A stretch of 64,000 nt of DNA, taken from contig JAQGGW010000001.1 in the NCBI GenBank assembly GCA_028289135.1, positions 76,018-140,017 of the forward strand. Direction: 5' to 3'. Under the pieces are notes generated by a model. That model was not told the DNA's origin and ran no database searches. It worked only from the letters and a program-made list of their open reading frames with translations. Within the stretch, counting starts at the first letter, position 1. Every line of letters begins with the position of its first letter. The stretch comes from Candidatus Saccharimonadota bacterium. Lineage in GTDB: Bacteria > Patescibacteriota > Saccharimonadia > Saccharimonadales > JACDBH01. Shown in pieces: positions 3,506-62,926 of the stretch. A program made the position numbers and the translations under genes.

Positions 3506-3631
3506 CTAGTTTTGGTTATAGGGATGCAGAATGGTGGCGCCGGTGAAGAACGGACTAAGCCGTATCAAAAAATACGGTGAAGGAGTACTGGAGCCGGCAA
3601 CGCCATTATGCGCCCTAGAAACAAAAACTAG
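3506..3631. repeat. long imperfect hairpin element, copy A (homologous core with copy B at 62800-62926)
   Basis: The outer arms are CTAGTTTTGGTTATAGGG and CCCTAGAAACAAAAACTAG. The core (3522-3614) contains GCCGG/CCGGC and AATGG/CCATT helices and the apical hairpin CCGTAT-CAAAAA-ATACGG. Roughly 75% identical by eye to the copy-B core. The right arm overlaps the tsf stop codon. Confidence 0.6.
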
Positions 3632-9072: not shown

Positions 9073-9104
9073 AAGCCGCTGTCCTTTTGGATGGCGGTTT
9101 TTTG
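9073..9104 (+). terminator. rho-independent terminator after rpmE
   Basis: CCGCUGUCC-UUUU-GGAUGGCGG forms 9 pairs including G.U, extendable by A-U pairs, and is followed by UUUUUU (9098-9103). Confidence 0.7.
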
Positions 9105-16973: not shown

Positions 16974-17705
16974 ATGAATGATATTATCGAACCCAAAGGT
17001 GTTACAAACAATAGCGGCGAACTGCCAGCGTCTCCGGCTGCTCCTGCGGCAGTACGTCCGGGTACGCTAGATAGCTCCTCCGCGCCTGCTAATGACTCTA
17101 AGGAGTCCAAGGATACTAAAGAGAAAAAGCAGTCTAAAACCCGCAGTGTACTTTCGACGATTGCAGTGCTATTAATTGCCCCGATCTTGGCCCTAACAAT
17201 TACGGCATATGTTTTCCAGTCATATGAAGTTGACGGACCGAGCATGCAGACAACGCTGCACGACCACGACCGGCTTATTATCTGGAAAGTTTCACGAACC
17301 TGGGCACGCCTAACGCACCACGACTATACACCCGCCCGCGGCGATGTGATTGTCTTTATTAAAAAAGGTCTTTATGAGGCCAACAGCACCAGAGAAAAGC
17401 AGCTTATTAAGCGGGTGATCGCGCTGCCAGGCGAGCGTGTGACGGTAAAAGACGGCAAGGTCACAGTCTACAACACCCAATATCCAAATGGCTTCAGCCC
17501 TGACAAAACCCAGCCCTACGGCACTGTCATCACCACCACCGATGGCAACCTTGACCTGACCGTCCCAGCCGGTGAAGTCTTTGTTTGCGGCGACAACAGG
17601 GCAAACTCACTTGATTCACGCTACTTTGGCCCAGTCCCATTGCACGACATCGTCGGCAAACTCGCCGTCCGCATTTTGCCAATCGGCGACGCCAAGAGCT
17701 TTTAG
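16974..17705 (+). CDS. lepB: signal peptidase I
   Basis: 243 aa with a TM anchor, catalytic Ser box GPSMQTTL, and the KRVIALPGE and GDNRANSLDSRYFGPV boxes. Confidence 0.92.
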   Translation: MNDIIEPKGVTNNSGELPASPAAPAAVRPGTLDSSSAPANDSKESKDTKEKKQSKTRSVLSTIAVLLIAPILALTITAYVFQSYEVDGPSMQTTLHDHDRLIIWKVSRTWARLTHHDYTPARGDVIVFIKKGLYEANSTREKQLIKRVIALPGERVTVKDGKVTVYNTQYPNGFSPDKTQPYGTVITTTDGNLDLTVPAGEVFVCGDNRANSLDSRYFGPVPLHDIVGKLAVRILPIGDAKSF

Positions 17706-17943
17706 TCTTAACTTTTTGCATTCATATTCTTTCTGAGCTCAAACGGGACCATTCCTTCTTGGTGCGCTTCTGTCAAACATACAACAGCCAAGGATGACTC
17801 CCTACGGTCGGCCATGAAGCTTTAAAGTTGAGTTCATGGCTAAATCCTTGGCGATAAGTTGTATCTTTGACGAAGCGCAGCCACGAACGAAGATCTTTAT
17901 GTTCGATCTCAGAAAGACCATGAATGCCTGGAGTGCGTTCGCG

Positions 17944-18127
17944 CAAATCAGTGTAAATAACGGCTGAACATAGCGGCATTTAACGGCTAAGCTTCGTCAA
18001 AGCGACAACAAAAACCAGCCGAAGCTGTTTGAGGCACGATCAGTGCCGAGTTCTGCAGGCTTGTTGTCGCTTTGACTAGAAGCTTACCGTAATGACGGTC
18101 GTTCAGCCGGTATTTATCACTGATTTG
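17944..18127. repeat. 184-nt long imperfect hairpin element, copy C
   Basis: The left arm is CAAATCAGTGTAAATAACGGCTGAAC...ACGGCTAAGCTTCGTCAAAGCGACAACA. The reverse complement of the right arm is CAAATCAGTGATAAATACCGGCTGAAC...ACGGTAAGCTTCTAGTCAAAGCGACAACA. The apical ~48 nt holds two small hairpins (CAGC-CGAA-GCTG and GGCAC-GATCA-GTGCC). It lies between the convergent lepB and parB genes. Confidence 0.6.
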
Positions 18128-18145
18128 AAAAAAAGCAACTTAATT

Positions 18146-19018
18146 CTATTTAAGAGTTTCGAGGAGGGCGATGAGTTTGTCTAGGTCTTCTTGGCTGGTA
18201 AAGCCAATTTCGAGCCGGCCGCCTTTGGCCATGTTTTTGATGCTGACTGGGCGGTTCCAGGATTTGCTTAAAGCTTCGGTTTTGGGGTTTGACGGAATCG
18301 TGCGCTTTTCGGCGGCTTTGGTATCTTCGGCGCCAGCTTTGGATGCTACCACGAACTGTTCGGCTTGACGGACCGACCAGCCGTTTTTTTGGATAAGCAG
18401 CAAAAGTTCGGTTTGGTTTTCGGGGGACTCTTTAAGTGCCAAAATTGAGCGGGCATGGCCTTCGGAAATTTTTTCGGTATTGAGTGCTTCTTGCGCGGCT
18501 GGAGATAATTGTAAGAGTCGCACAATATTGTTTACGGTCGATGGTGCCTTGCCAAGCCGCTTGGCAATATCGTCGTAGCTTTGGCTAAACATCTCATGCA
18601 AACGCTTTATCGACACCGCTGTTTCCAATGGTGATAAATCCACACGCTGGATGTTCTCTACCAGAGAGACTTCGAGCTGTTCCAGTTCTTTACTTGTTCG
18701 CACAATTGCTGGCACTTTTTGGATTCCGGCCAATTTTGCGGCGCGCCAACGGCGCTCACCAGCAATTAACAGATATGTATCTGGCGTTTTGCCCGGTGAA
18801 ACAATCAATGGCTGCAGTACACCGTACTGTTTTAATGAATCGGCCAGCTGTTCGAGCGCCAAATCGTCAAAAAAGCGCCGCGGCTGGTCTGGATTTGGGA
18901 AAATGGACGAAACGAATAACTTTTGTACTCGTTCGCTATCTGTTTCTAATAATGTTGTGTCCAGGTCGGTCGGCATGAGTACATCAAAGCCTCTACCGAG
19001 CGCAGATTTTTTAGCCAT
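18146..19018 (-). CDS. parB: chromosome partitioning protein ParB
   Basis: 290 aa with the ParB box LIAGERRWRAAKLAG and an HTH region. Confidence 0.93.
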   Translation of the reverse strand: MAKKSALGRGFDVLMPTDLDTTLLETDSERVQKLFVSSIFPNPDQPRRFFDDLALEQLADSLKQYGVLQPLIVSPGKTPDTYLLIAGERRWRAAKLAGIQKVPAIVRTSKELEQLEVSLVENIQRVDLSPLETAVSIKRLHEMFSQSYDDIAKRLGKAPSTVNNIVRLLQLSPAAQEALNTEKISEGHARSILALKESPENQTELLLLIQKNGWSVRQAEQFVVASKAGAEDTKAAEKRTIPSNPKTEALSKSWNRPVSIKNMAKGGRLEIGFTSQEDLDKLIALLETLK

Positions 19019-21109: not shown

Positions 21110-21694
21110 ATGGATGAAGAGACGGCGAAAGCTAGCGAGCCGGCAGTAGCTGTAAAAAAACCAGCGCGCACGCGCAAAAAAGCACATGGCAAACTGCCGG
21201 TTATTTTGGCAAGTGTTTTTGGAACATTGCTTGTTTTGGGCGGAGGCTATGGAGCATGGGTGTTTTTACACCGGGTGGTGAGCCCCGTGCCAAAAGCCAT
21301 CCGCGCCAGCGTTAACTTCCCTGTCTACTACCCCGACCAAAAGAAGCTACCCGTGGGCTATACGCTGGATTTACATTCATTTAAAAACCCACACCCCAAT
21401 ACCTTGCTGTATAACGTAACGTACGGCAATGGCAAAAAGCTGGTGTTTGCATTGCAGGTAAAACCATCGGACGATGACATCCAGAGCTTTTATGCCAACC
21501 TAATTCCGCTTAGGAACAAAATGGATGTCCCGGCTGGGCACGCTGAAATTGGGGCCTATAACAACGGTGGCAAAATCGACACCCAGTCGGTAATTAGCCT
21601 GCCGACAGCAACTAATACGTGGATAATAATAACTGGTCCCGGTGACATTGACCAGGGCCAGTTAAAGCAGGTTTTGACGTCTATCCGCAGTTAG
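21110..21694 (+). CDS. single-pass membrane protein, paralog 1 of a three-member family
   Basis: 194 aa: basic tail (KKPARTRKKAHGK), one TM, then the ecto-domain opening PKAIRASVNFPVYYP. Same architecture as 39869-40480 and 56589-57464. Confidence 0.7.
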   Translation: MDEETAKASEPAVAVKKPARTRKKAHGKLPVILASVFGTLLVLGGGYGAWVFLHRVVSPVPKAIRASVNFPVYYPDQKKLPVGYTLDLHSFKNPHPNTLLYNVTYGNGKKLVFALQVKPSDDDIQSFYANLIPLRNKMDVPAGHAEIGAYNNGGKIDTQSVISLPTATNTWIIITGPGDIDQGQLKQVLTSIRS

Positions 21695-28800: not shown

Positions 28801-31514
28801 ACTGCTAGATCCGGACTACCATCTTTGTTGAAGTCTCCAGATATAACACCCTGGGGACCGTTAGTTACAGGATAGTCAACTTTCGTACCAAATGTGCCAT
28901 TACCGATACCGAGTAAGACCCCTACCTTGTTAGTTACAAATAACGTGGTTGCTATATCAAGTACACCATCTTTGTTGAAGTCTCCTAATGTAAGTGGCCC
29001 AGGCTGCGATACGGTCGGATAGTCAACTTTCGCGGCAAATGTACCGGTACCGTTATTTAACAAGATAGAGATTGCATTTGCAGAAGAGCTCGTATCTGAT
29101 ACTGCCAAATCTATATCACCGTCCTTGTCAAAGTCACCTGAGACTATATAGTCAGCTAATAAACCGGTTACAGGAGGTGATGCTTGAATAGTAAAGACAC
29201 CACTTCCATTATTAAAGAATATTGCCACTGTATTATTACCGTTATTTACAGTGGCGATATCAATAAATCCGTCTTTGTTAAAGTCACCGGTAGCAATACC
29301 GTCGGGGCTTGTACTTGCACCGGTAGCATAGTCTACTTTGGCTGCAAAAAGACCACTACCTTGGTTTATAAAGATCGAAAAAGTATTAGCGCCATAGTTT
29401 GTTACAGCTATGTCAATTTTACCGTCATTATTAAAGTCGGCGCTGGTAGCTGTAGTTGGATTATTACCAGATGTATAGTCTACTTTAGGTTTAAACAAAC
29501 TTTGCGTACCCGTTGAGCCAACGGTAATTGCAGACGAATCTGTGCCGACTGTAAAGACATTTGCGCCATAAACGTTTTTAGCAGTAAGTTGTACTGAGCT
29601 GCTTCCCTGCGTATAAACAGTTCCATCACTCTTTACCTGCAGCCCTTGATAGAAAATACTAAAGGCTGATGAGGTGTGGGTGCGGCTTGTGTTTACTGTA
29701 ATATGGGTGGTGTCATTAAACGCAGTGATGATGTCAGAAACACCATCGGCATAGACAATTTGGCTGCCAACCATAGCTGCAGTAAATGTGGTACCTACGC
29801 CCACAACTGTTGTGCTGGCTGTTTGGCTAGCAGTACCGGTTGCATACTGTAGTGGACTAACACCAAACGAGTTCAGCGGGACGCTTGTACCAATGCCAAC
29901 GCGGCTGTTGAGTGTGTCGGCAGTAAGAATTGCGGTGCCTGCAAGGTTTTGGACTTGGAGTGCAGAAACTGAGTCGCTCGTGTTCTTAAATACTGTAGTT
30001 GTACCAGTAAATGTTTTGCTGCCAGCAATAATCTGCGCGACTGTACTGACAAGGCCTGGGAAGCTACCATCGGCATACTGCAGAATTAGGTTAGAGCCAG
30101 AAACGCTGGCTCCGTTGGCTGCTGTTGGTACGACAAGTAGAGTACCAACGTTCGTAATACCTGTGCCACCAGCACCAATACAATCTACCCAGGCGCTATT
30201 TTGGTAACAACGGAAAGTACCACTACTTGAGTTATAGTATATCGCCCCATTTACCTGGGTAGTAGTTGGATCTCCGGGGTCTGTTTTGACTGGCAATCCT
30301 AAGAATGTTGCCGATGTACCCGTTGCCACACCAGAGAGTTTAATGCTGCCAGTGCCTGCTTTGAGGTTCAGGGCACCGGCGTTTAAAATGTTACCAATGT
30401 TAATATTTGTCTGACCTGTGCCTGCTGGTGTACCAGTACCGATGTTGATGGCTTGGGTATTGCCCGTCAGTGTATTACCAATACCGATATTAATTGTATT
30501 CGAGGCTGTTGACTGGCCGACAGTTATTGCATTGGCCAGCGTTGTTGATCCGATGGTGATGCCCGATGTATTGTTCACTGTGCCGATGAGGATAGAGCCT
30601 GCAGTGGCGCCCGATGTTCCGACGTCCACTTTGAGATCACCAGAGTTGCCCGTTGCGTTGCCCGTCTGAACAGTAAGCGCACCACTAAAGCCAGTTGCCG
30701 TACCAGTTGCTACTGTGAGTGTTCCTGAGTTGCTGGTGGCACCAGTAGCATCGCCAGACTGGACGAGATTATTTGCCGAACTGGTACTCGCGGTAGAAGT
30801 ATTACCTGAGTTTACGTTAATAGCTGTTAAGGCGGTAATTGCGAGTGGAACAGCAGTTGTCTGGATACGCGGTGTCATTTCGGTATCCCAGGTTGGAGTA
30901 GCTGTTTGGTTGTTGCCGCCAACACGCATGGAAAGGTAGAGTTGTTGAGTCCAGTCCATAGTGCTCGGGAATGCGACACCGCCGTTGCCCGTGTCACCAA
31001 GCACCACGCTATAGTAGCCATTGGTAACACGGACACGGTAGTCGTCACCGGAACCAATTGGAGCCGCACCATCATGGTCGTAGTGGACTTCTGTCCAGAG
31101 ACAGGCTGTATCTGCAGTAGTACCTGGCAGCATAGTACACGCGCCAGGGTTGGGAGTATTTCCTGAGGTAGTCGCATTATAGAGCTTAAATTCCATGTTG
31201 TAGTAGCCGTCTGCCACTAACGCGCCGGTGTTGCTGAGGAGGCGGCCTTGGAAGTTAAGGGTTTTATTTGGACTGAGGGCGGAGGCGGTTGGGTGTGAAG
31301 CGTTAAAAGTACCAAAAAGCACACCAAGGGGGACGAACAAAACGGCTATTACGAGAATAGCCTTTCTGTACCTTGGTGTGCTTTTACGTACTTTTAGTTG
31401 GTTAACAGGGGTCGCGCTCAGTTCTTTAAAAACGCCAATAAGACGGTCTAATGACCGCCTTATTGGCGTTTTTAACGGTAGTGAACTGAGGGCGTCCCTT
31501 CCCTGGGTGTTCAT
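22869..31514 (-). CDS. giant secreted surface protein P1 (2881 aa), mosaic of repeat cassettes
   Basis: Long n-region, hydrophobic segment and an ASA/LS cleavage-like site. Next come the conserved N-module (KTLNFQGRLLSNTG...PRIQTTAVPLA) and a G/T/S-rich beta-helix-like stretch. Then 7+7 FG-GAP/VCBS-type blades (GDFNKDGxLDxAV), about 5 CBM4/9-like modules (NxxFEx..GW), LVIVD-like repeats (YAYVVGSTGMQIFDITNPVTPV) and a Cys-containing C-terminal tip. Confidence 0.85.
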   Translation of the reverse strand: MNTQGRDALSSLPLKTPIRRSLDRLIGVFKELSATPVNQLKVRKSTPRYRKAILVIAVLFVPLGVLFGTFNASHPTASALSPNKTLNFQGRLLSNTGALVADGYYNMEFKLYNATTSGNTPNPGACTMLPGTTADTACLWTEVHYDHDGAAPIGSGDDYRVRVTNGYYSVVLGDTGNGGVAFPSTMDWTQQLYLSMRVGGNNQTATPTWDTEMTPRIQTTAVPLAITALTAINVNSGNTSTASTSSANNLVQSGDATGATSNSGTLTVATGTATGFSGALTVQTGNATGNSGDLKVDVGTSGATAGSILIGTVNNTSGITIGSTTLANAITVGQSTASNTINIGIGNTLTGNTQAINIGTGTPAGTGQTNINIGNILNAGALNLKAGTGSIKLSGVATGTSATFLGLPVKTDPGDPTTTQVNGAIYYNSSSGTFRCYQNSAWVDCIGAGGTGITNVGTLLVVPTAANGASVSGSNLILQYADGSFPGLVSTVAQIIAGSKTFTGTTTVFKNTSDSVSALQVQNLAGTAILTADTLNSRVGIGTSVPLNSFGVSPLQYATGTASQTASTTVVGVGTTFTAAMVGSQIVYADGVSDIITAFNDTTHITVNTSRTHTSSAFSIFYQGLQVKSDGTVYTQGSSSVQLTAKNVYGANVFTVGTDSSAITVGSTGTQSLFKPKVDYTSGNNPTTATSADFNNDGKIDIAVTNYGANTFSIFINQGSGLFAAKVDYATGASTSPDGIATGDFNKDGFIDIATVNNGNNTVAIFFNNGSGVFTIQASPPVTGLLADYIVSGDFDKDGDIDLAVSDTSSSANAISILLNNGTGTFAAKVDYPTVSQPGPLTLGDFNKDGVLDIATTLFVTNKVGVLLGIGNGTFGTKVDYPVTNGPQGVISGDFNKDGSPDLAVVNQGSNTVSVLLGLGNGAFGTKVDYATASTPVKIVTGDINKDGNLDLMVTSAGGGNIVSVLLGNSNGTFSAKIDYTAALGLGGISAADYNNDGNLDLSSTGSSGPSLTVMINAELGVTQTTNPSLSIYNNSVNDALSIYGQSTSQLLRVDGQGNTTIGGSSANLFDPKVDYSAGSTPQAITTGDFNKDGILDIASTESITFNTNVSLGLGNGTFGPKVAYYTANFPVGITSGDFNKDGNLDLAVANSDNVVSIFMGIGNGTFGARTDFNSVGSSPQGITTGDFNGDGKLDLAITNFSSATISIILNSGLGTTQFGTSPPTFTTLVSYTVGTNPTAISTGDFNGDGKLDLAIANAGSLFISVLINSGLGTGQFGASPPAATTLANYTTSSIQYGIVTGDFNKDGKLDIAATNNNSITMSIFINSAVGTGQFGSGANPITATTRVDYSTGTSPRGIIAGDFNKDGTLDIAVTNTSSNTVSIFTNSGLGSGQFGASPPVATSKTDYTTGSQPLAIITGDFNNDNDLDLAVINTNSATFSVLSGTTVANNRLRVMNTSGTGSLFDLSNSGLALKNIINSSAAFQIQNSIGSAVLNVDTTTLNTLTSNTSFEGALTGWTANGTNASVQETSAQAYAATNSLLFTTGTAANNSARYNIGAVLATSTTYTFSFYARLASGSMSLPNPLTIAYARDGTTATQTDCAVYNATTIITSGGWTRVSCTINTDGTAPASTAYLAIKQLDTTSRSLYIDSLQLEAGTAITQAQIGNTGFETAGVAAPWTKTGSGAPVNMTLDTTTGYNGANSLKMTVLTPGGRDGTSYITANTNPTQLNIDSSYTLSFWAKASAAFSTFTAGYERDGVTVSDCKTSLGTVTTNWSRFSCTITTDNTAPAAGAFIYIVQTDLVTRNWWIDDVQLTNNANIVNPVAYQDSSISFNGIINTSTLIRNKSDSTNALQVQNAAGTSLLTADTLNGVVSVGGAPTLTQLSSVTTAATPWGLVVVGDYAYTINNGTSFQITNMSTSSVASTTAVPLASSLNGIYISGNYAYLVDETVAKIFIYDISNPFAPVLKNGSAETTYQTNASVWVQGNYAYVVGSTGMQIFDITNPVTPVSLSTTAMSASYSIVLKGKYVYVAGGGASNASTLKIVDISNPFSPVIVSTSTQVNMLSLYVQGKYVYATDGGIVRILDVSNPTATPVQVGTLYITNNDYLSRAHWGMPYSIFVKGRYAYVAGADNKIYTIDISTPSLPVLTATTTNGSSTDNIYIQGSYLYTTDYTGAAIYQYAMNSAGSVIVNNTVQAYSGSFTSDLSIGGALNISSSTTDAFRVGSSSTSTVLSVDTSVGNLNNVITNASIETDTTGWAAKGTTPTTFAREPNKGYSGSSSLKVTTQATIDQGAIYNVSLPSGRWTASLYIMLDSTSKSMSTLAVGYAKDGVTDGNCNINTSTLRAGQWVRVTCSFFTLAPSGTPYFYVKQTDANIHTFYIDGVTLQTDANSDANYREGKISLGGTITSPVTLQNSFNSANALTVQNAAGTNIFNIDTTDSNIITNPGFEVNLLGWGPELGGALPTRETSQAWLGTASLGEVTSATANSGARFITGNVQPTQLAISTTYTLSWYAKLSSGTFTDIKGRYSVDGGTTFIDCTPTGGLTPQVVNLNGWTRYVCSFTTAVTTPSATAYIAIVQTAATAHTFWIDGVQLEAAATASEYAAGSLFINATITSPTVFKNTSNSTEEFKIQNAAATNLLTVDSLNGNVVVGVQDANTTPLVLDWDTDATFLNGSTGATAGTEVDGGMFYSSTDHRAMCGIAGSWLPCNGLLYSNTAASGSVSTCLATCASIGTAPVPANFCKPGKTIHIFASGVYNTTAAVTVGMGVYYGTDGTTRTNDGASPIGIASVPVSSGAAAVNLGWHLDYYIICYSTTTMMGQGYFSNATTTTTSTSVSMYTTTATTVVSTSAKNLYLFPAFGASAAGNNITMEQYIVTGN
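27190..29500 (-). repeat. coding repeat array: two sets of seven FG-GAP/VCBS-type blades in P1
   Basis: I counted 14 copies of the xDFNxDGxxDxxx calcium-loop motif, split 7+7 by the linker ...VMINAELG...RVDGQGNTTIGG...ANLFDPKVDY. Confidence 0.75.
31428..31473 (-). promoter_or_regulatory. terminator-like hairpin plus U tract inside the P1 coding region (+42..+87)
   Basis: mRNA sense: AAAAACGCCAAUAAGGCGGUC-AUUA-GACCGUCUUAUUGGCGUUUUU then AAAG. That is 21 contiguous pairs including one G.U. Confidence 0.55.
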
Positions 31515-31536
31515 TTTTTTCCTTTAGATTTTTGTT

Positions 31537-43400: not shown

Positions 43401-45331
43401 CTCAAGTTACCGCCAGCGATATTAACCGTTTGCGTGGCCGCGGTAGCAAGGGCTGAACTCAAAATGCTGACACTCGCACCCGTGGCCGTCGACTGGCCGA
43501 GTAATATCTGTCCTGTTTGCGTGGTCGATCCAATAGTGATTGTTTTAGCAACGCTATTTGAAGTGGCGCCAATGCCAATATCTGGAACGCCGGCTGAGCT
43601 GGCACCAACATCCAATACGATGCTACCTGCTGTACTACCGGCTGTAACTGAGCCGGATTGCAAGGTTAAGACACCAGAGCTGCCGCTTGTTGCGCCGCCA
43701 GCACCGGTAGTAAGTGTAATACCACCACCAACACCGGTTGCTCCGCCCTGGCCCGCCTGCAATGTTAGTAAACCGCCAACACCTGAACCAGTTGCATGTG
43801 CCGCACCGGATGAAATAGTCAGGCCGTTACCGCCAGTGCCAGAATTAGACTGTGTTTCCACTCCTATTGTTCTGGCTGTGGTGGCACTAGTTATTTGGCC
43901 TAGTGACAGGTCATAGCTTACATTGGTGGTGTCGGTTGTGCCGCCATTGTTAATGCCAACCCGGCCGTTACCTTGTACGACAAACAATGAGGCGCCAAAG
44001 GTTGAAGCCGAAGCTGGAGCGCGTACACTAAGCAAACCTTTTGTAGCACCAATAGTTCCAGATGACTGGTCTTGGATATCAAAGCCGTTTCGCGTAGCGC
44101 TGTCTAGGATTATTTCTGGCGTCGTACCGCCCGTTGAGGCATTATATGCATCCTGCAATTTAACGCCCGTGGCACAGGTTGCGAAGGTCAAAATACCTGC
44201 TGTGCCGCTATTTTGCAGACATTGGTTAGCCGAACCAATTGAGGTTGGTAGTGTTAAGGTGTAGTCACTGCCCACCCCGCTTGATGTTATGTTTACAAAG
44301 TTAGACGAACCATCGGAAACAGCCAAAATGCCGGCAACGGAGCTAGTACCAAGCGTTTGCGTTCCGCCCTGAACAGTTAAGTTACCTACGTTTGTAGTGG
44401 TAAAGGCTGCACGGCCTAGGAGCAGGCTCGAAGCGCTGGTTGCACCCAATGATATTGTTCCTTTAGTAGCGCCGGTTCCAGCATCGATAGTAATGTTGCC
44501 GGATGTGCCGGTTGCATCACCCGAACGGATATTTAAGGCGCCCGAGTTGCTGGTTGTGCCAGAAGCATTGCCGGACTTAATTAAAGCAGCAGCCGAGTCG
44601 GTACTAGCCGCATATGTATTGCCACTATTCACATTGTTAGCCATAAATGCGAGCGGAACTGCAGTGGTTTGGATACGCGGCGTCATTTCTGTGTCCCAGG
44701 TTGGGGTAGCTGTCTGGGTGCTGCCGCCGACACGCATAGTCAAGTAGAGTTGTTGGGACCAATCGATGGTGGTTGGGAAGGCTACACCGCCATTGTTAGT
44801 GTCGCCTAGGACAACACTAAAGTAACCATTAGTTACTCTGACTCGGTAATCATTGCCTGAACCTATTGGTGCTGCACCGTCTGTGTCATAGCGGACTTCT
44901 GTCCAGAGACAGCCAGGATCTGCAGTTGATCCTGGTGTCATAGTACAAACACCAGGGTTAGGAGTACCAGTGGAGGTGGTTAGATTGTAGAGCTTGAACT
45001 CAATGTTGTAGTAGCCGTCAGCAACTAGAGAACCGGTGTTACTGAGTAGGCGGCCTTGGAAGTTGAGGGTTTTGTTGGTTGTGAGAGCCAATGCTGTTTG
45101 AGGTGCCTTAAACCCAGCTAAAAGCACGCTGCCTGGGATCAGCAAAAGGGCTATTACGAGAATAGCCTTTTTGCAAAGCAACGTGCTTTTAGCCGGATTT
45201 AAGGTGTTATTTGCACTTTTAGTAAACAAATTTAAAAGGGTAGGAATACGCACCGACTTTAAAACAAAGTCAGCAAGTATTCCTACCCTTGGTATTCGCT
45301 TGACGCGGGGATCCCTTCCCGGTTTAAGCAT
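40490..45331 (-). CDS. giant secreted surface protein P2 (1613 aa from ATG 45331)
   Basis: The start is moved from the track's 45397 to MLKPGRDPRV (ATG 45331, AAAGGA SD), by analogy with P1 and P3; the first 22 track codons are leader. It has the conserved N-module, about 1000 aa of G/T/S/A-rich beta-helix-like low complexity, and a C-terminal tip GGMYYNSNAGRFRCYENGAWADC... Confidence 0.85.
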   Translation of the reverse strand: MLKPGRDPRVKRIPRVGILADFVLKSVRIPTLLNLFTKSANNTLNPAKSTLLCKKAILVIALLLIPGSVLLAGFKAPQTALALTTNKTLNFQGRLLSNTGSLVADGYYNIEFKLYNLTTSTGTPNPGVCTMTPGSTADPGCLWTEVRYDTDGAAPIGSGNDYRVRVTNGYFSVVLGDTNNGGVAFPTTIDWSQQLYLTMRVGGSTQTATPTWDTEMTPRIQTTAVPLAFMANNVNSGNTYAASTDSAAALIKSGNASGTTSNSGALNIRSGDATGTSGNITIDAGTGATKGTISLGATSASSLLLGRAAFTTTNVGNLTVQGGTQTLGTSSVAGILAVSDGSSNFVNITSSGVGSDYTLTLPTSIGSANQCLQNSGTAGILTFATCATGVKLQDAYNASTGGTTPEIILDSATRNGFDIQDQSSGTIGATKGLLSVRAPASASTFGASLFVVQGNGRVGINNGGTTDTTNVSYDLSLGQITSATTARTIGVETQSNSGTGGNGLTISSGAAHATGSGVGGLLTLQAGQGGATGVGGGITLTTGAGGATSGSSGVLTLQSGSVTAGSTAGSIVLDVGASSAGVPDIGIGATSNSVAKTITIGSTTQTGQILLGQSTATGASVSILSSALATAATQTVNIAGGNLSLSGAGKTINLATGSVIAGTTLSVNIANNASAAGTIAVVVGSNGASGHTTLIQGGTSASAITLQTAGGASSAINIGANAVQKTINIGSVGAVIGASAIHIADTSDATTIQSVIIGSNANAAHTTLIQGGSGTAITLTPQTTGTITIGATGGSGIITLGSSTTTQTVNIGAGTGVPTVNIVNGSTTGSSVTIAGQATASGTDTINIATGNTSGTGAKTVNIANGTPAGGVNTVNIGSTALASTLLLQGGTGTGASAAIKLTAASGGDITIGNSSGAGVVNLNSNVTITAGKNITFGASGNFNQSASSGSFSTGTGTATLNGNTTVTGGKSLTVATGSTFTNASSTLFTSIPVSMSAGGNIPSGGSGSTGASTTVDVATTFDITETTGSQTLTLPTPGVATSGRVVYVNNVGSVSFTLYGVVLAAGNSNSYMWNGTGWTSMQGAGVGGSGVNTIGTFSSGTSYANGATITGGNTITLGSASGSTPGLLNGTTQSLDGDKTWTGNTTMTGTLLQKSDSSSAFVLQDSTATYNNLAFDSSTNRLRVYNHGGTRTDYLEMYYDNATSTGIIASSSGTTQIGSGTGSGGNINLLLTNATDQLIACKSSSTSCGTGLTATAAYSTNDFYFRRNVTGTSYALTGNLMTVEDLSTFTSGSSAPNLLYLNQANSSATGNLLLAQTGGATDVFKVSTAGIVTVKAGGTLTSGGALTVSSGGATVLNVDTGGAAALNIAPTNATSIVIGGNTAATLTEKVANSSTAAYNLQTAGGTAFLTLDSTNSRITVGASDTTGTLLILDTKTGSGDPTGVNGGMYYNSNAGRFRCYENGAWADCLGYRHLLTVASDIPSTASVACQNVTALTFSVTSGVVYRYHAHILHTGTATTIGVGYGVSAPASPTLFSQIQNTPSAATTLLTQNINAISTCTASTASFSTTGNIDEVDGVIVPSASGTFQFLFAPETATASGVVIRAGSTLEWW
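45224..45290 (-). promoter_or_regulatory. terminator-like hairpin plus U-rich tract inside the P2 coding region (+42..+108)
   Basis: mRNA sense: AAGGGUAGGAAUAC...GUAUUCCUACCCUU (14 bp), capped by GACUUU-GUUUU-AAAGUC, then UUAAAUUUGUUU. Confidence 0.5.
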
Positions 45332-45688: not shown

Positions 45689-46150
45689 TTATTGGATAAG
45701 GATATAGTCGAAGTTATATGTTGTGCTGGCAGAAGGCGCGTCCAAGAAGTGAATAACAAAACCATCCGTGGTGTTAGTTACAAAATAGCGGGCCGTGGCG
45801 CTGTTGGCGTCTTTAGCTGTCAGTGCAATCCGCGGTGCAGTGGTATATGTCTTGTTAAATTTAACTGTTATCTGCTCACCCGCTGCCAGTGTATAGGCTG
45901 GAGTGTACAAGGTTGCAGCAGCAGTCGTACCAGATGTGTAGCTAACGGTACCAGCACTGTCGTTACCAACAATTGCAAAGCTGCTGTCTTTGCCTGTCAC
46001 GGTGGTGCTGGCTCCCAAGACAGCCGTCGGTGCATTGCCAGAAGTAATAATCCTCGCAACCGTAAGCTGCTGTAATACTGTGTCGCCCTTCACTGTCAGC
46101 CCGCCAAGTGTCGCATTGCCGCCAATTAGTCCAAAGTGATCAAAATCCAC
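45689..46150 (-). CDS. 153-aa protein with H-type-lectin-like C-terminal half, overlapping the end of P3
   Basis: GTG start at 46150, a 25-nt overlap with the P3 3' end, no clear SD. The pattern VKFNKTYTTAPRIALTAKDANSATARYFVTNTTDGFVIHF resembles the H-type lectin beta-sandwich. Confidence 0.55.
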   Translation of the reverse strand: MDFDHFGLIGGNATLGGLTVKGDTVLQQLTVARIITSGNAPTAVLGASTTVTGKDSSFAIVGNDSAGTVSYTSGTTAAATLYTPAYTLAAGEQITVKFNKTYTTAPRIALTAKDANSATARYFVTNTTDGFVIHFLDAPSASTTYNFDYILIQ

Positions 46151-55100: not shown

Positions 55101-55737
55101 ATCCGCCAACCCGCATAGTTAGATAGAGCTGCTGAGACCAGTCGATGGTGGATGGGAAGGCTACACCACCATTGTTAACGTCGCCTAGGACTACGCTAAA
55201 ATAACCATTAGTTACCCTAACGCGATAGTCATTACCTGATCCAATTGGAGCGGCACCGTCTGTATCATAGCGGACTTCTGTCCATTGGCAGTTTGCGTCA
55301 CCCGTACATGAACCCTGGGAGGAACCAGTGGAGGATGGATCATTATAAAGTTTAAACTCAATGTTGTAGTAGCCGTCCGCTACCAAAGAGCCAGTATTGC
55401 TTAGCAGCCGGCCTTGGAAGTTTAGGGTTTTGCCGGTGATGGCTAGGGCGCTAGCGGGCTGTGGGTTAGTTTTCAGAACACTAAATAGCACGATGGTTGG
55501 ACCCAGCAGAAGGGCTACTACGAGAATAGCCTTTTTGCTCGCCAGCGTGCTAATTATTGATCTGAAAATTCTTACCAAATCAAAAACCCCCCGTGGATCA
55601 TCATTATTAGGGGTGCGCTTAACAGACTGCTGATTTAAATCAGCAGGGCTGTGTTTAACAGATGACTGAATTGGCTCAGTATCTGATGGCGTCCTTAATA
55701 ATGACGTTCCACGGGGGGTCCAGCCCGGTTGAATCAT
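46126..55737 (-). CDS. giant secreted surface protein P3 (3203 aa), mosaic of repeat cassettes
   Basis: It has the conserved N-module. There are three Asp-box-like propellers, with 17 canonical blades (WxSVxYGNGxFVAV...VMTSPDGxxWTxRT) plus 3 degenerate closing blades. It also has 7+7 FG-GAP blades with the same linker as P1, a Kelch-like VYNGKLY region, and a C-terminal DLAEDYP...GDIVSI segment. AAAGGAAG SD. Confidence 0.85.
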   Translation of the reverse strand: MIQPGWTPRGTSLLRTPSDTEPIQSSVKHSPADLNQQSVKRTPNNDDPRGVFDLVRIFRSIISTLASKKAILVVALLLGPTIVLFSVLKTNPQPASALAITGKTLNFQGRLLSNTGSLVADGYYNIEFKLYNDPSSTGSSQGSCTGDANCQWTEVRYDTDGAAPIGSGNDYRVRVTNGYFSVVLGDVNNGGVAFPSTIDWSQQLYLTMRVGGSTQTASPTWDTEMTPRIQTTAVPLAFMANNVNSGNTYAASTNSNDVTVQSGNATGTTSNSGNVGIDAGTATGTKGSISIGIANAAAITIGRSGLTTVNAGALQVGGNLTIGNALTSVTPVGYTLQSTGGLGSNIAGAAFTLAGGQGTGTGVGGNLVFQTAKAGTTGSSLNTLQTILTLSGTNGSASFQNSVDSTSAFQVQNAAGVPVLKVGTTNLKVTTIGDSYIDSKAWTIRASAGDDTWNSVAYGNGIYVAVSSTSGTGNEVMTSPDGITWTMRTSSTSAVWNSVTYGNGLFVAVSSTAGTGNEVMTSPDGITWTARTSSLSASWNSVTYGNNVFVAVSQTAGTGNEIMTSPDGTTWTTRTSSVSASWKSVTYGNGLFVAVSSTAGTGNEIMTSPDGTTWTTRTSASSSTWSSVTYGNSLYVAVSAAGSVMTSPDGTTWTSRTAASANNWRSVTYGSGLYVAVSTTGTSTRVMTSPDGTTWTTRTDPVDNSWNGVGYGNGVFIAVGSGGVGNNVMTAYLADSAVTDSTTAFQIQGSKGSALTLDVLNSRLEVVGDIVSKGTSWTVRTSAADNSWSSVAYGNGIFVAVASTGTGNRVMTSPDGIIWTIRTSAADNSWSSVTYGNGLFVAVAYSGTGNRVMTSPDGVNWTIRTSAADNAWNGITYANGLFVAAACGISSTFCNNTAGNRIMTSPDGITWTSRTSSANNMWDGITYGNGLFVTVASDGSITNSVMTSPDGINWTTRTAPNTNDWESITYGNGLFVAISEFGISGARVMTSPDGITWTIRSNTVNNAWSSVAYGNGTFVSVSVDGTGNHAMTSGKQDYIAVSNNNKYQGGLTVNGSSTFTSDLNSSTAFQVQNSAGTNVLSVDTSNSRLEVVGDIISKGTSWTSRTGAANLIWNSITYGNGLYVAVASSGTGNRVMTSPDGINWTARTSAADNKWNSVVYGNGLFVAVSNDGTGNRVMTSPDGITWTIRTSAADNDWMSVTYGNGLFVAVACGVGGTTCDANAGNRVMTSPDGINWTLRVSTANVSWYSVTYGNGVFVAVSYFNTAAMSSPDGITWTARTLPSVDYWDSITYGNGLFVAVALGPTTSDVATSPDGITWTSRTTPTNGWNSVTYGNGLFVAVTSTGTGNRVMTSPDGINWTSRISASDDSWHGVVYGNGMFVAIGTISVTNNVMTSGKQDYIPVSNNNNYQGGLTVHGSNLFQSDANSVSAFQIQNSSGTSLLNVDSTNNKLTVATDIIATGASTATTGTTSATPATNTTTVILTAAGSFANNDIIFIDNTSGQDYYTRIVSGGGTTTLTVSPAVSYLASATVTKYTAQSIGATSTDYTTLNNRFFQGYFTGGIVTGAGSTVYSDGRVQSSNTLNINAVGVTIQNTADSTSSLLVQNSSGSNVLNVDTTSNSLSVGSTASIGLFKSKADYTTGSAPGYAAVGDFNKDGYSDMVVSNFSSNTVSIFMGAVNGTFAAKVDYTTGSSPTGIVTGDFNNDGKLDFAVVNSGSATFSIFINSALGSAQFGASAPTATTKVDYTTVALPFGIVATDLNNDGKLDIAVASAQTTSNVSIFLNSGLGSGQFGAGAPTANPVRVDYSAGSTPKSIAAADFNSDGKVDLVTSNSAATTVSILFNTSSGAGLFGASPPAVSVSTTGTVGTTPLAVAVGDFNKDGKPDIAAVNYGSATVSILLNTTGVAFATKVDYATGTNPKGVVVGDFNKDGLLDMAVTNMDTSTLSTYLNTGSGVFASKVDYTKGTSSGTAPQFGIAADFNNDGNIDLASTNNGGNTISVLLNAELGFAPTSSPTLNIFNNSINDSLSISGQGAKQLVRVDGQGNTTIGGNTANLFDAKTDSPVMSQANSVAAGDFNKDGIQDIIVAMNNGYVGLLFGNGIGGYGNESDTNVCGGGNAKSVVVADFNRDGYLDAAATCGTVTVTVLINNGTGTFATGSYTISGSGSYIYLAAGDFNGDGKVDLAVPQYSSGAVVSVLINSGLGTGQFSATTTPTTQVDYTTGANPEGITTGDFNADGKLDMAITNAGGTVVSVYLNTGAGSGQFGASPPAAASKTDYTVGTQPTYVQSADLNKDGKLDLVIANNTNQIGVLINTGSSFAAEVNYTVANSAFIDSFRIGDLDKDGNLDVITANDSSNTVSVLLGTSTGTFGANTDYATGTRTQDVAIIDLDGDGDLDVISANLLGSSISVLSNTSLSNKRLSVLNTLGTASLFSVSNNGLTVNTTQTNNGNLVVGGQADVSPAAVTLVGTAGTFGSDTSVAGAFSSAVYNGKLYISTKKTDGSAIYRGDGKTWSKVTDSTSGKIISGDTANIDASVLSVYNGKLYAGTQTGTTTGAVYAYDGTTWTLQLATRGTFGSDASVEGVSSMAVYGTKFYLVTRGTDNAGIYRYDGSTTWTRLNTTLGKGLAEATADIDGGPLVVYGGYLWWGTITGSTTARIYRLDSSSGTLVMTLWNTTPGQLQAGITAIPDITTMQVWNGWLWVGTGATNLAEVYVMQGSTGAAGASPFGTTSSIRGRVDSVNDATDIDAITAIQVYNGRMYVATKTVAGDAGAVYEYITGGGAGGQPYVKAYTAARGTFGSQTAVDQVDTLIAYGNSLYIGTEEGTTGAVYTYTKTVQNSFALQFATDTSNSPAAAISYVGNTQADSNRSSAGSFLFSSNINTTSGSYDLAEDYPTRDDTLAAGDIVSISPSEEKFVQKGDAASAKAIVGVYSTNPALRLSQSDATIDGARAVPVALAGRVPVKVSAENGPIVAGDPITISPTQPGVGVKAISNGRIVGMSMGSFSGDGTGSVTVFINPSFYNVQTSGIAQGMTINGSFIDLNTSGLATIDTLVVNNEARIVTLKVSGNAEFGGDIKVVAPVNTRAATIRKFIASEPIEPGKVVILDENNDGGVLVSTQDDDTRIIGVAVTQAIHKGDEIEVAVGGAVQVSVTNTIPLIKPGSLVVSSSSGSVITVQSPQPGSILGKSTAKTDANNRMWILITLD
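48470..50850 (-). repeat. coding repeat array: two sets of seven FG-GAP/VCBS-type blades in P3
   Basis: 14 xD(F/L)NxDGxxDxxx motifs, split 7+7 by ...VLLNAELG...RVDGQGNTTIGG..ANLFDAKTD. This is the same cassette as P1 27190-29500. Confidence 0.75.
51540..54420 (-). repeat. coding tandem repeats: Asp-box-like propeller blades of P3
   Basis: Neighbouring units are near-identical at the DNA level. For example, CCAAGTAGTGCCGTCTGGGCTGGTCATGATTTCGTTGCCGGTGCCGGCAGT occurs at 53896 and 54025 (129-nt period). Confidence 0.8.
55581..55721 (-). promoter_or_regulatory. large structured domain plus U tract inside the P3 coding region (+19..+157)
   Basis: 27-nt arms at 55693-55719 and 55586-55613 pair with 2 mismatches and 1 G.U. 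They enclose a perfect 20-nt palindrome, CTGCTGATTTAAATCAGCAG (55627-55646). UUUUUGAUUU follows in mRNA sense. Confidence 0.5.
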
Positions 55738-62799: not shown

Positions 62800-62926
62800 T
62801 GAATCAGTGATTTATGTGGATGCAGAGCAAGGCGCCAGCGAAGCGCGGACCGAGCCGTATCAATAATACGGTGAGGGAGCACTGGAGTTGGCAACGCAGC
62901 TATGCGCCACATAAATCATTGATTAG
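62800..62926. repeat. long imperfect hairpin element, copy B (homologous core with copy A)
   Basis: Outer arms AATCAGTGATTTATGTGG and CCACATAAATCATTGATT. The core, GGATGCAGAGCAAGGCGCCAGCGAAGCGCGGACCGAGCCGTATCAATAATACGGTGAGGGAGCACTGGAGTTGGCAACGCAGCTATGCGCC, aligns with copy A. It sits between convergent genes and overlaps the stop of 62916-63182. Confidence 0.6.

Follow-up and report, generated by a model that had tools for sequence, protein, structure and literature searches.

A structured RNA leader in the signal-peptide codons of giant surface-protein genes of Candidatus Saccharibacteria, with a possible role in early transcription elongation

The subject of this study is the 5′ leader of three giant surface-protein genes, designated P1, P2 and P3, which are located within a 64,000-nucleotide (nt) stretch of DNA from a Candidatus Saccharimonadota bacterium (contig JAQGGW010000001.1, positions 76,018 to 140,017; referred to below as the window and numbered from its first letter). 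The genes lie on the minus strand, as do all of the leader features described here, and comprise P1 (22869-31514; 2,881 amino acids (aa), ATG at 31514-31512), P2 (40490-45331; 1,613 aa) and P3 (46126-55737; 3,203 aa, ATG at 55737-55735). The length of P2 is counted from an ATG shared with its homologs (45331-45329), which was taken as the start; the mechanical open reading frame (ORF) begins instead at TTG 45397. A preliminary description of this DNA had noted, within the first ~50 codons of each gene, a hairpin with the shape of an intrinsic terminator, and had proposed that it makes full transcription of the gene dependent on translation. This hairpin, named V here, is accompanied by parts that lay beyond that description: a second long hairpin (B), a short hairpin (H0) and hairpins of the 5′ untranslated region (UTR).

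The closest mechanistic analogue of V is the pyrBI (pyrL) attenuator of Escherichia coli, in which read-through depends on the closeness of the lead ribosome to RNA polymerase (PMC5021804, PMC4824070). As in pyrBI, the terminator-like hairpin is placed within a translated frame and no antiterminator structure is present. The two systems differ in that (i) the frame containing V is that of the main gene, of 1,613-3,203 codons, and not that of a separate 44-codon leader peptide, so that termination would yield a non-stop RNA, (ii) V is 2-3 times longer and is located in the n-region of a signal peptide and (iii) the signal in pyrBI is UTP-dependent pausing. V also resembles canonical Rho-independent terminators: the base of its stem is rich in G and C and is followed immediately by a U run, in many cases with a complementary A tract. 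Such terminators come after a stop codon, however, while V is placed 42-99 nt into an ORF, and its stems comprise 14-25 pairs compared with 10-12 in the local terminators.

Processive antitermination systems that guard long transcription units include RfaH/ops, LoaP and HK022 put. In the zipper-type attenuator of pLS20, an early terminator preceded by conserved hairpins guards a very long transcription unit, an arrangement that the leaders studied here resemble (PMC13401043). All of these systems are untranslated and use an antiterminator fold or a dedicated factor, whereas V is translated and has no alternative fold. No gene for a dedicated antitermination factor was found near P1-P3 in Pfam searches of the neighbouring ORFs.

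At the protein level, extended signal peptides are known from giant secreted proteins, namely the ESPR of autotransporters and TpsA proteins, and the YSIRK and KxYKxGKxW types of Gram-positive bacteria. The proteins encoded by P1-P3 and their relatives are similar to these proteins in combining a conserved motif at the extreme N-terminus, a long n-region, a normal h-region and an AxA site with a very large surface protein. In this case, however, the extension is mostly constrained as RNA structure rather than as peptide, and Pfam searches of the full proteins gave no match to ESPR/YSIRK-type motifs (only FG-GAP, CBM_4_9, LVIVD, EPTP and DUF6242). The rnc and pnp leaders, which belong to RNase III-controlled mRNAs with long hairpins, likewise contain near-perfect duplexes of about two helical turns near the mRNA 5′ end; the leaders described here differ from them in that one of their two duplexes (V) bears a terminator-type U run. 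Our survey of the literature on Saccharibacteria terminators, on candidate phyla radiation (CPR) bacteria and Rho, and on signal-peptide hairpins revealed nothing on point.

Hairpin V in P1-P3 and related leaders

Relatives of the three leaders were gathered by a protein search, exact-contig look-ups, one species-genome scan and one metagenome scan. Proteins starting with M-x-x-x-G-R-D-[A/P]-[R/L] were classified as GRD-type. Leaders of this type number 16: the three of the window and 13 from other Saccharibacteria metagenomes (L001, L002, L003, L008, L084, L052, L077, L080, L164, L165, L166, L067 and L119). Another protein, P0006, which is GRD-type by its sequence and has no DNA on record, was kept outside the 16. 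The order of parts common to the GRD leaders is (i) two UTR hairpins, U1 and U2, (ii) an A-rich stretch with a Shine-Dalgarno (SD) sequence and the AUG, (iii) H0, (iv) V and (v) B, and each of these modules was checked on its own subset of leaders. As a structured RNA, the leader is a new and well-supported motif that covaries strongly and is absent from Rfam; a function is proposed for it below.

In P1, V (31427-31475) covers codons 14-30 and is composed of 23 contiguous pairs, one of them G.U, with the loop AUUA and flanking A5 and U5 tracts; the U run ends at +87, counted from the start codon. The 21-pair core reported earlier at +42..+87 was exact. The region folds (RNAfold, 31415-31485) with a free energy of -37.0 kcal/mol (z -9.2 against dinucleotide shuffles, none of 200 as good). 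In P2, V (45224-45290; +42..+108) consists of a 14-bp basal and an 11-bp apical stem, followed by UUUUAAAUUUGUUU. The basal stem had been described correctly, while the apical stem had been given as 6 bp; the remaining pairs are A-U and G.U. Its energy is -38.0 kcal/mol (45215-45300; z -7.0), which no shuffle equals, and the P2 ortholog L001 carries a V of equal shape and different stem sequence. The V of P3 (55581-55720; about +18..+157) is expanded: arms of 27 nt close a three-way domain containing the perfect 20-nt palindrome CTGCTGATTTAAATCAGCAG, both as noted in the preliminary description, and its base absorbs H0. It is followed by UUUUUGAUUU and folds with -69.5 kcal/mol (55578-55725; z -9.1), again unequalled by any shuffle. 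The comparison with shuffled sequences thus gave z values of -7 to -9 in all three cases, and the U tracts (UUUUU in P1) were found directly after all three hairpins, where they had been placed earlier.

As noted before, the V sequences of P1, P2 and P3 are not alignable with one another, and the UTR, the start region and the downstream signal/N-module are. The three V hairpins, together with the B hairpins, constitute six of the nine longest inverted repeats in the window. In several leaders V is extended by a longer outer helix, formed between bases just after the U run and bases just before V that include the 3′ half of H0. Such zipping was observed in P1 (31400-31500; CUCAGUUC/GAACUGAG), L002, L003 and L084, and was absent from P2, L001 and L008.

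V is present in all 16 GRD-type leaders, so the claim that position and shape are kept while the sequence turns over, made for three genes, now extends to several Saccharibacteria assemblies. The stem begins at +42..+51 in the majority of leaders, with the last base of the U run at +87..+99; P3, with its expanded version, and L002, whose core is nested in a larger helix, deviate from this. The stems contain 14-25 pairs (51 in P3), have a G/C-rich base and range from -19 to -72 kcal/mol. The U run directly 3′ of V consists of at least 4-7 U in 15 of the 16 leaders (UUUCUUU in L164); the stem base directly before it is G/C-rich, and the run is UUUUU or longer in nearly all leaders. Where no 5′ A tract is present, the U run is unpaired and is followed by a second U-rich patch, e.g. 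CCC-UUUU-AAAUUUGUUU, GGGGGG-UUUUU-GAUUU and GUGC-UUUUU-GCGUUUAUU. A simple hairpin of -18 kcal/mol or lower abutting at least four T was detected in all nine external GRD leaders with enough flank, as opposed to none of 80 non-redundant ordinary relatives from the same protein family in the equivalent region.

The U run is set in a uniform codon frame, xxT-TTT, in which GTT, GCT, CTT or ACT precedes the Phe codon TTT. The wobble T preceding this Phe codon is invariant in the 14 leaders examined, even though GTT accounts for only 36% of Val and GCT for 27% of Ala codons in the window, and T for 31% of third positions. This indicates that the U run is kept at the nucleotide level. The hairpin is translated: the reading frame of 11 V regions contains no stop codon, compared with 28 and 26 stops in frames +1 and +2. 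Some other explanations of a hairpin at this site were rejected. By eye, no conserved slippery heptamer of a -1 frameshift stimulator precedes V and no R''/R' core of an attC-like site is seen, and the homopolymer tracts of the window are only 5 nt long, which does not suit slippage-based phase variation.

The V stems contain 34 G.U pairs as opposed to 3 A.C single mismatches, and those of B 24 as opposed to 6. The pairing is therefore selected in the sense RNA, and not in DNA or in an antisense transcript. This bears on the view that the repeats are DNA-level palindromes, i.e. operators (an option raised in the preliminary description), cruciforms, recombination or inversion sites such as an inverton formed by the P3 arms, or single-stranded-DNA hairpins. 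The repeats are indeed perfect or nearly so and close to promoters, and the P3 arms lie 80 nt apart. However, the non-Watson-Crick positions are overwhelmingly G.U on the sense strand, the covariance model of B (see below) scores 110-129 bits in the sense orientation compared with 38-52 in the antisense one, and the V stems drift freely in sequence, unlike operators. The loops of P1 and P2 (4-5 nt) are too short for inversion, and no recombinase is encoded among the neighbouring ORFs. Given the sense-strand bias and the short loops, we rejected the inverton, the operator and the cruciform, and a DNA-level role of any kind appears very improbable.

In the P1 clade (P1, L008 and L084) the V stems are alignable and show compensatory changes. 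Combined with the shared codon frame, this shows that the V hairpins have a common ancestor and drift under structural constraint, and that they did not arise independently. Independent insertion of palindromic elements had been listed earlier as an alternative; it would here mean in-frame insertions of mobile elements, of the repetitive extragenic palindrome (REP), Rickettsia palindromic element (RPE) or miniature inverted-repeat transposable element (MITE) kind, into a permissive part of the gene. That the three V sequences of the window cannot be aligned mutually fits this idea, and in-frame palindromic insertions have a precedent in Rickettsia. It is contradicted by the single codon frame and position of the U run in the leaders examined, by the alignable and compensating stems within the clade, and by the constant association of V with H0 and B. 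Furthermore, no other copy of a V arm, with up to 4 mismatches, was found in the 64-kb window or in 166 related loci; the dispersed palindromes that would have pointed to a mobile element were thus not encountered there. A mobile-element origin of V is largely refuted, and we regard it as scarcely credible.

Hypervariability of V, or diversifying selection on it, was considered as well. The evidence is mixed, since V is less conserved than its flanks between P2 and L001 (61% vs 77-96%) and more conserved in the P1 clade (71-75% vs 55-73%), and we read it as ordinary drift under structural constraint. Elsewhere in the window, an unrelated membrane-protein ORF (21110-21694) contains a 10-bp stem followed by AUUUU at +28..+98 (21138-21207, plus strand). 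This stem is not significant (z -1.9, 8 of 200 shuffles), so it provides no evidence that a V-like device is general in this genome.

We also searched for an antiterminator by pairing the V arms with the UTR, the start region and B. The resulting duplexes were no better than those of shuffled arms (z -2.3 to +1.3), and no consistent alternative partner of either arm was found among the leaders. A 15/19 match between the 5′ arm of V and the 3′ arm of B in P1 was dismissed, as it is not repeated in other leaders. In the absence of an alternative fold for the V arms, antitermination by RNA switching is unlikely. Of the mechanism suggested earlier, the terminator anatomy and the translation of the hairpin were upheld, while this variant was not.

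Hairpin B and the modules upstream of V

The second long hairpin, B, is a firmly supported RNA structure. It encloses the codons for the hydrophobic signal segment and is located at 31301-31399 in P1, 45106-45204 in P2 and 55470-55568 in P3. The P1 copy has an outer helix of ~27 bp and the inner hairpin GGCUAUU-CUCGU-AAUAGCC. An inverted-repeat scan gave arms of 26-27 nt, 41-45 nt apart, for P1-P3, and the outer helix of B comprises 25-29 near-perfect pairs. Covariation was assessed in an ungapped, codon-anchored alignment of 14 leaders, in which six rows were placed by best structural fit; each time, this placement agreed with the reading frame and the conserved loop. Of all cells, 89.5% pair. 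Both sides vary in 34 of the 41 pairs, as opposed to 11-15 after displacement of the 3′ partner by 1-3 columns, and none of 500 column shuffles matched any of the observed measures. The inner loop is nearly invariant (UUCUCGUAAU; UUCGCA in distant members) while the stems covary. No conserved U tract follows B.

A covariance model of B (R1) matches solely the leaders of P1 (114.5 bits sense, 38.2 antisense), P2 (128.6 and 52.1) and P3 (109.9 and 41.5) within the window. Applied to 158 other loci, it retrieved L067 and L119, neither of which belonged to the set from which it was built. Both of these leaders, recognized via B alone, turned out to have the GRD start and a V followed by U7. The ordinary relatives examined do not contain B. 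In L119 (L119:560-1090) a normal GRD start, V and B (70 bits, with one extra base) are followed by a frame that lacks the TLNFQGRL module; this is possibly a decayed or frameshifted copy.

Upstream of U1, promoter-like sites occupy conserved columns of the leader alignment: TTGAAC-16-TACAAT in P1 (31621-31648) and TTGAGC-18-TATAAT in P2 (45432-45461). They place the predicted 5′ end a few bases before U1, so that a transcript stopping at V would be ~190 nt long. In P1 the UTR contains U1 (31612-31567; UUAAUCC...GGAUUAA) and U2 (31556-31540; GUUUC...GAAAC), whose equivalents are located at 45424-45388 and 45377-45360 in P2; U2 of P3 is at 55786-55767. The U1 and U2 positions each hold a hairpin in all eight leaders folded, with stem sequences that differ between leaders (e.g. 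AUUUCU/AGAAAU in P2 and GCUUCUUC/GAAGAAGU in L002). An SD-like AAAGGA or AGG is found 6-10 nt upstream of the start in the leaders; the P1 sequence AAGGA lies, together with the ATG, at 31512-31524.

H0 was identified in all 16 leaders as a 4-bp helix (NGGG-N7-8-CCCN', +11..+26). In P1 (31489-31504) it takes the form AGGG-N8-CCCU and covers codons 4-9 within the conserved M-x-x-x-G-R-D-[A/P]-[R/L] start; its equivalents are at 45306-45321 in P2 and 55712-55727 in P3. The helix is closed by a C-G pair in 13 leaders and by A-U in the P1 clade, and two wobble bases, the G of codon 4 and the C of codon 8, do not vary even though the encoded amino acids do. Rfam contains no family matching the window at the gathering score, and none that matches in a meaningful way at E-value thresholds when four leaders and the P1 leader were searched; the sole matches of the leaders were long-hairpin miRNA/sRNA models far below threshold.

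Since the inner loop of B is almost invariant while its stems covary, it could be the site of an RNA-binding factor, which would recognize U1/U2, this loop (UUCUCGUAAU or UUCGCA) and possibly V. Such a factor might mediate processive antitermination in long genes, in the manner of NusG paralogs, put or EAR, in which case V would be a terminator that only a modified RNA polymerase passes; or it might serve mRNA localization or secretion coupling. Two UTR hairpins precede the terminator-like V, and hairpins also precede a terminator in known processive antitermination leaders. The hairpins of a second leader type (STS-type, described below), with their invariant apical motif, likewise look like a binding site, and long operons guarded by leader attenuators and antiterminators have been documented (PMC13401043). 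On the other hand, U1, U2 and V are conserved in shape and not in sequence, and Pfam searches of the neighbouring ORFs revealed no candidate regulator gene beside P1-P3. We therefore consider a protein-binding leader improbable.

Early elongation and the long duplexes

The n-region that precedes a normal h-region and AxA site in these proteins is unusually long (45-70 residues). The hydrophobic segment is followed by AxA-type motifs (ASA-L, ALA-L, AHA-A, AYA-A) and then by the conserved module, and a signal peptidase gene is present within the window (16974-17705, plus strand). On these grounds, the whole pre-sequence of 75-100 residues is predicted to be cleaved, and beyond the GRD start and hydrophobicity its amino acids would be free for RNA pairing to dictate. 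The leader would thus extend from the transcript 5′ end through the n-region and hydrophobic-core codons of a signal peptide which, being discarded, leaves its codons free to encode RNA structure.

V has the complete set of sequence features of an intrinsic terminator, i.e. a stable G/C-rich stem-loop in the sense RNA with a U tract directly 3′ of it. Two intrinsic-terminator-like sites at gene ends in the window share with it the style of A tract, GC clamp and U tract: one after an rpmE-like gene (9073-9100, plus strand; AAGCCGCUGUCC-UUUU-GGAUGGCGGUUU+UUUG) and one upstream of the P3 promoter (56138-56115, minus strand; AAAACGCUCC-AAAA-GGGGCGUUUU+UUAUUG). The reading that we favour, tentatively and without calling it probable, is that V is an intrinsic terminator or pause inside the main ORF, which gates early elongation via the pioneer ribosome. 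Located 42-99 nt into the ORF, V would emerge where this ribosome is normally still behind RNA polymerase. By default, the polymerase would pause or be released at the U run. A ribosome that initiates promptly at the strong, unstructured SD/AUG could melt the 5′ arm of V, upon which the polymerase would continue. Entry into the 5-10 kb gene would thereby be limited to transcripts that carry a coupled ribosome, the alternative being release of a non-stop RNA of ~190 nt.

The position of V is consistent with observations made in E. coli, where terminators within the first ~100 bp of an ORF keep most of their efficiency, as the first ribosome has not caught up, and the lead ribosome represses those located deeper in the ORF (PMC4824070). 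When the pyrL terminator was inserted in frame, expression fell ~18-fold, and further if ribosomes were stalled upstream (PMC5021804).

Several points weigh against such a checkpoint. The V stems (14-25 pairs, 51 in P3) exceed the 10-12 bp of the gene-end terminators of the window, and a plain terminator does not need a stem of this length. B is equally long, more conserved and lacks a conserved U tract, which suggests that selection in this leader acts on long double-stranded RNA as such. In 6-8 leaders the U run pairs with the upstream A tract and could be a mere extension of the stem, and the STS-type leaders of homologous genes carry tandem hairpins without U tracts at the equivalent protein position. 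Gating also supposes that transcription and translation are coupled in Saccharibacteria. Moreover, B lies downstream of the decision point, so it must act separately and would have no effect on termination at V. Its likely roles would be the slowing or spacing of ribosomes, or that of an RNase III target on untranslated mRNA, and its presence suggests that long double-stranded RNA has a post-transcriptional function in this leader, either besides the gating or in its place.

Taken further, this leads to the view that both V and B act as duplexes on the finished mRNA, either as RNase III sites on ribosome-free mRNA or as ribosome roadblocks, with the U run being secondary. In the roadblock variant, V and B would reduce the speed of ribosomes and keep them apart early in the synthesis of a giant protein that is secreted during translation. 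RNase III recognizes duplexes of about two helical turns. V (14-25 pairs) and the outer helix of B (25-29 pairs) have approximately this length and reach the size of its substrates (~20 bp or more of near-perfect double-stranded RNA). Both pair in the sense RNA, the strongest covariation is found in B, which has no conserved U tract, and P1, L002, L003 and L084 zip V into an outer helix that encloses the U run. What this view leaves unexplained is that a U run abuts V in all 16 leaders, is held by synonymous codon choice and is absent from B, and that V keeps a fixed distance from the start codon. We rate this view, the main competitor of the checkpoint, as possible, if on the whole unlikely.

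Sister leader type, genomic setting and significance

A second structured leader type, designated STS-type, was observed in homologous giant-protein genes of Saccharibacteria. In these genes 1-5 in-frame hairpins encode the long n-region. Their apical motif, CCUCAYGCGCCCGRG (peptide STS[C/R]ARALS), is invariant, whereas the lower stems vary with compensatory changes. In total, 31 copies, all on the sense strand, were found in 13 loci (L015, L017, L025, L029, L037, L042, L046, L069, L092, L098, L107, L118 and L151, plus strand) and none in the window; L158 is STS-type by its peptide motif only. Upstream of the STS hairpins, where the sequence covers this part, there is a conserved GCAAGGGAU...AUCCCUUGC hairpin starting ~50 nt past the start codon. 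Folding of the 330 nt that precede the module yields a minimum free energy (MFE) as low as -150 to -178 kcal/mol, compared with about -90 downstream, and no clear U tract is present. GRD-type, STS-type and plain-signal-peptide paralogs coexist in one contig or genome bin: L077, L029 and L050 share JAUIBQ010000004.1, L052 and L037 share CAZHXX010000009.1, and L080 and L069 are in assembly CAZTWI01. The type of leader is thus specific to each gene, not to the organism.

Pfam searches of the full proteins identified FG-GAP, CBM_4_9 and LVIVD repeats in P1, and FG-GAP with EPTP/DUF6242 in P3. Relatives of the N-terminal module (..TLNFQGRLL..) come almost only from Candidatus Saccharibacteria/Patescibacteria assemblies, and the best relatives in sequence collections are ~45-66% identical. 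The genes around P1-P3 are ordinary bacterial housekeeping genes, encoding RF-1, a class I aminoacyl-tRNA synthetase, RseP-like and HtrA-like proteases, LytR, signal peptidase and ParAB. An ORF of 153 aa (45689-46150, minus strand), which lies shortly before the P2 promoter and shares 25 bases with the 3′ end of P3, shows a weak, sub-threshold match to H-type lectin (E 0.004).

Other repeats of the window were also recorded. The 440-nt gap (17706-18145) between the convergent signal peptidase gene and parB (18146-19018, minus strand) folds as two giant, near-perfect hairpins of ~200 nt each. Its MFE amounts to -197 kcal/mol (z -15.4) for the plus strand and -200 kcal/mol (z -13.4) for the minus strand. 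The gap contains neither a tRNA or tmRNA nor direct repeats and has no counterpart in Rfam, even with the threshold relaxed to E≤1; candidate explanations are a large non-coding RNA, a pair of MITEs and palindromes associated with par/ori. Intergenic inverted repeats were also found at 3506-3631 (38-nt arms, 71% complementarity, 50 nt between them) and 62802-62924 (18-nt arms, 94%, 87 nt between them).

It is conceivable, although we do not think it likely, that the leader represents a new class of cis-regulatory RNA, so far confined to Candidatus Saccharibacteria, which occupies disposable signal-peptide codons and is built of the modules H0, V and the ~100-nt B. Such a class would make transcription conditional on the pioneer ribosome, and possibly on secretion capacity, in cells with few ribosomes, and the sister leader type would have a related job in the paralogs. 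Whatever its mechanism, the leader motif could enter Rfam and be searched for.

If V does gate transcription, it would be a natural intrinsic terminator kept within a main reading frame and read by the pioneer ribosome, a type of readout hitherto described for short leader peptides (pyrBI) and in engineered constructs. A further consequence would be that the cleaved part of a signal peptide can double as coding space for regulatory RNA. For the ultra-small cells of the CPR, which have few ribosomes and few known regulators, this would provide a first handle on how the cell commits itself to a 5-10 kb mRNA for a host-contact protein.

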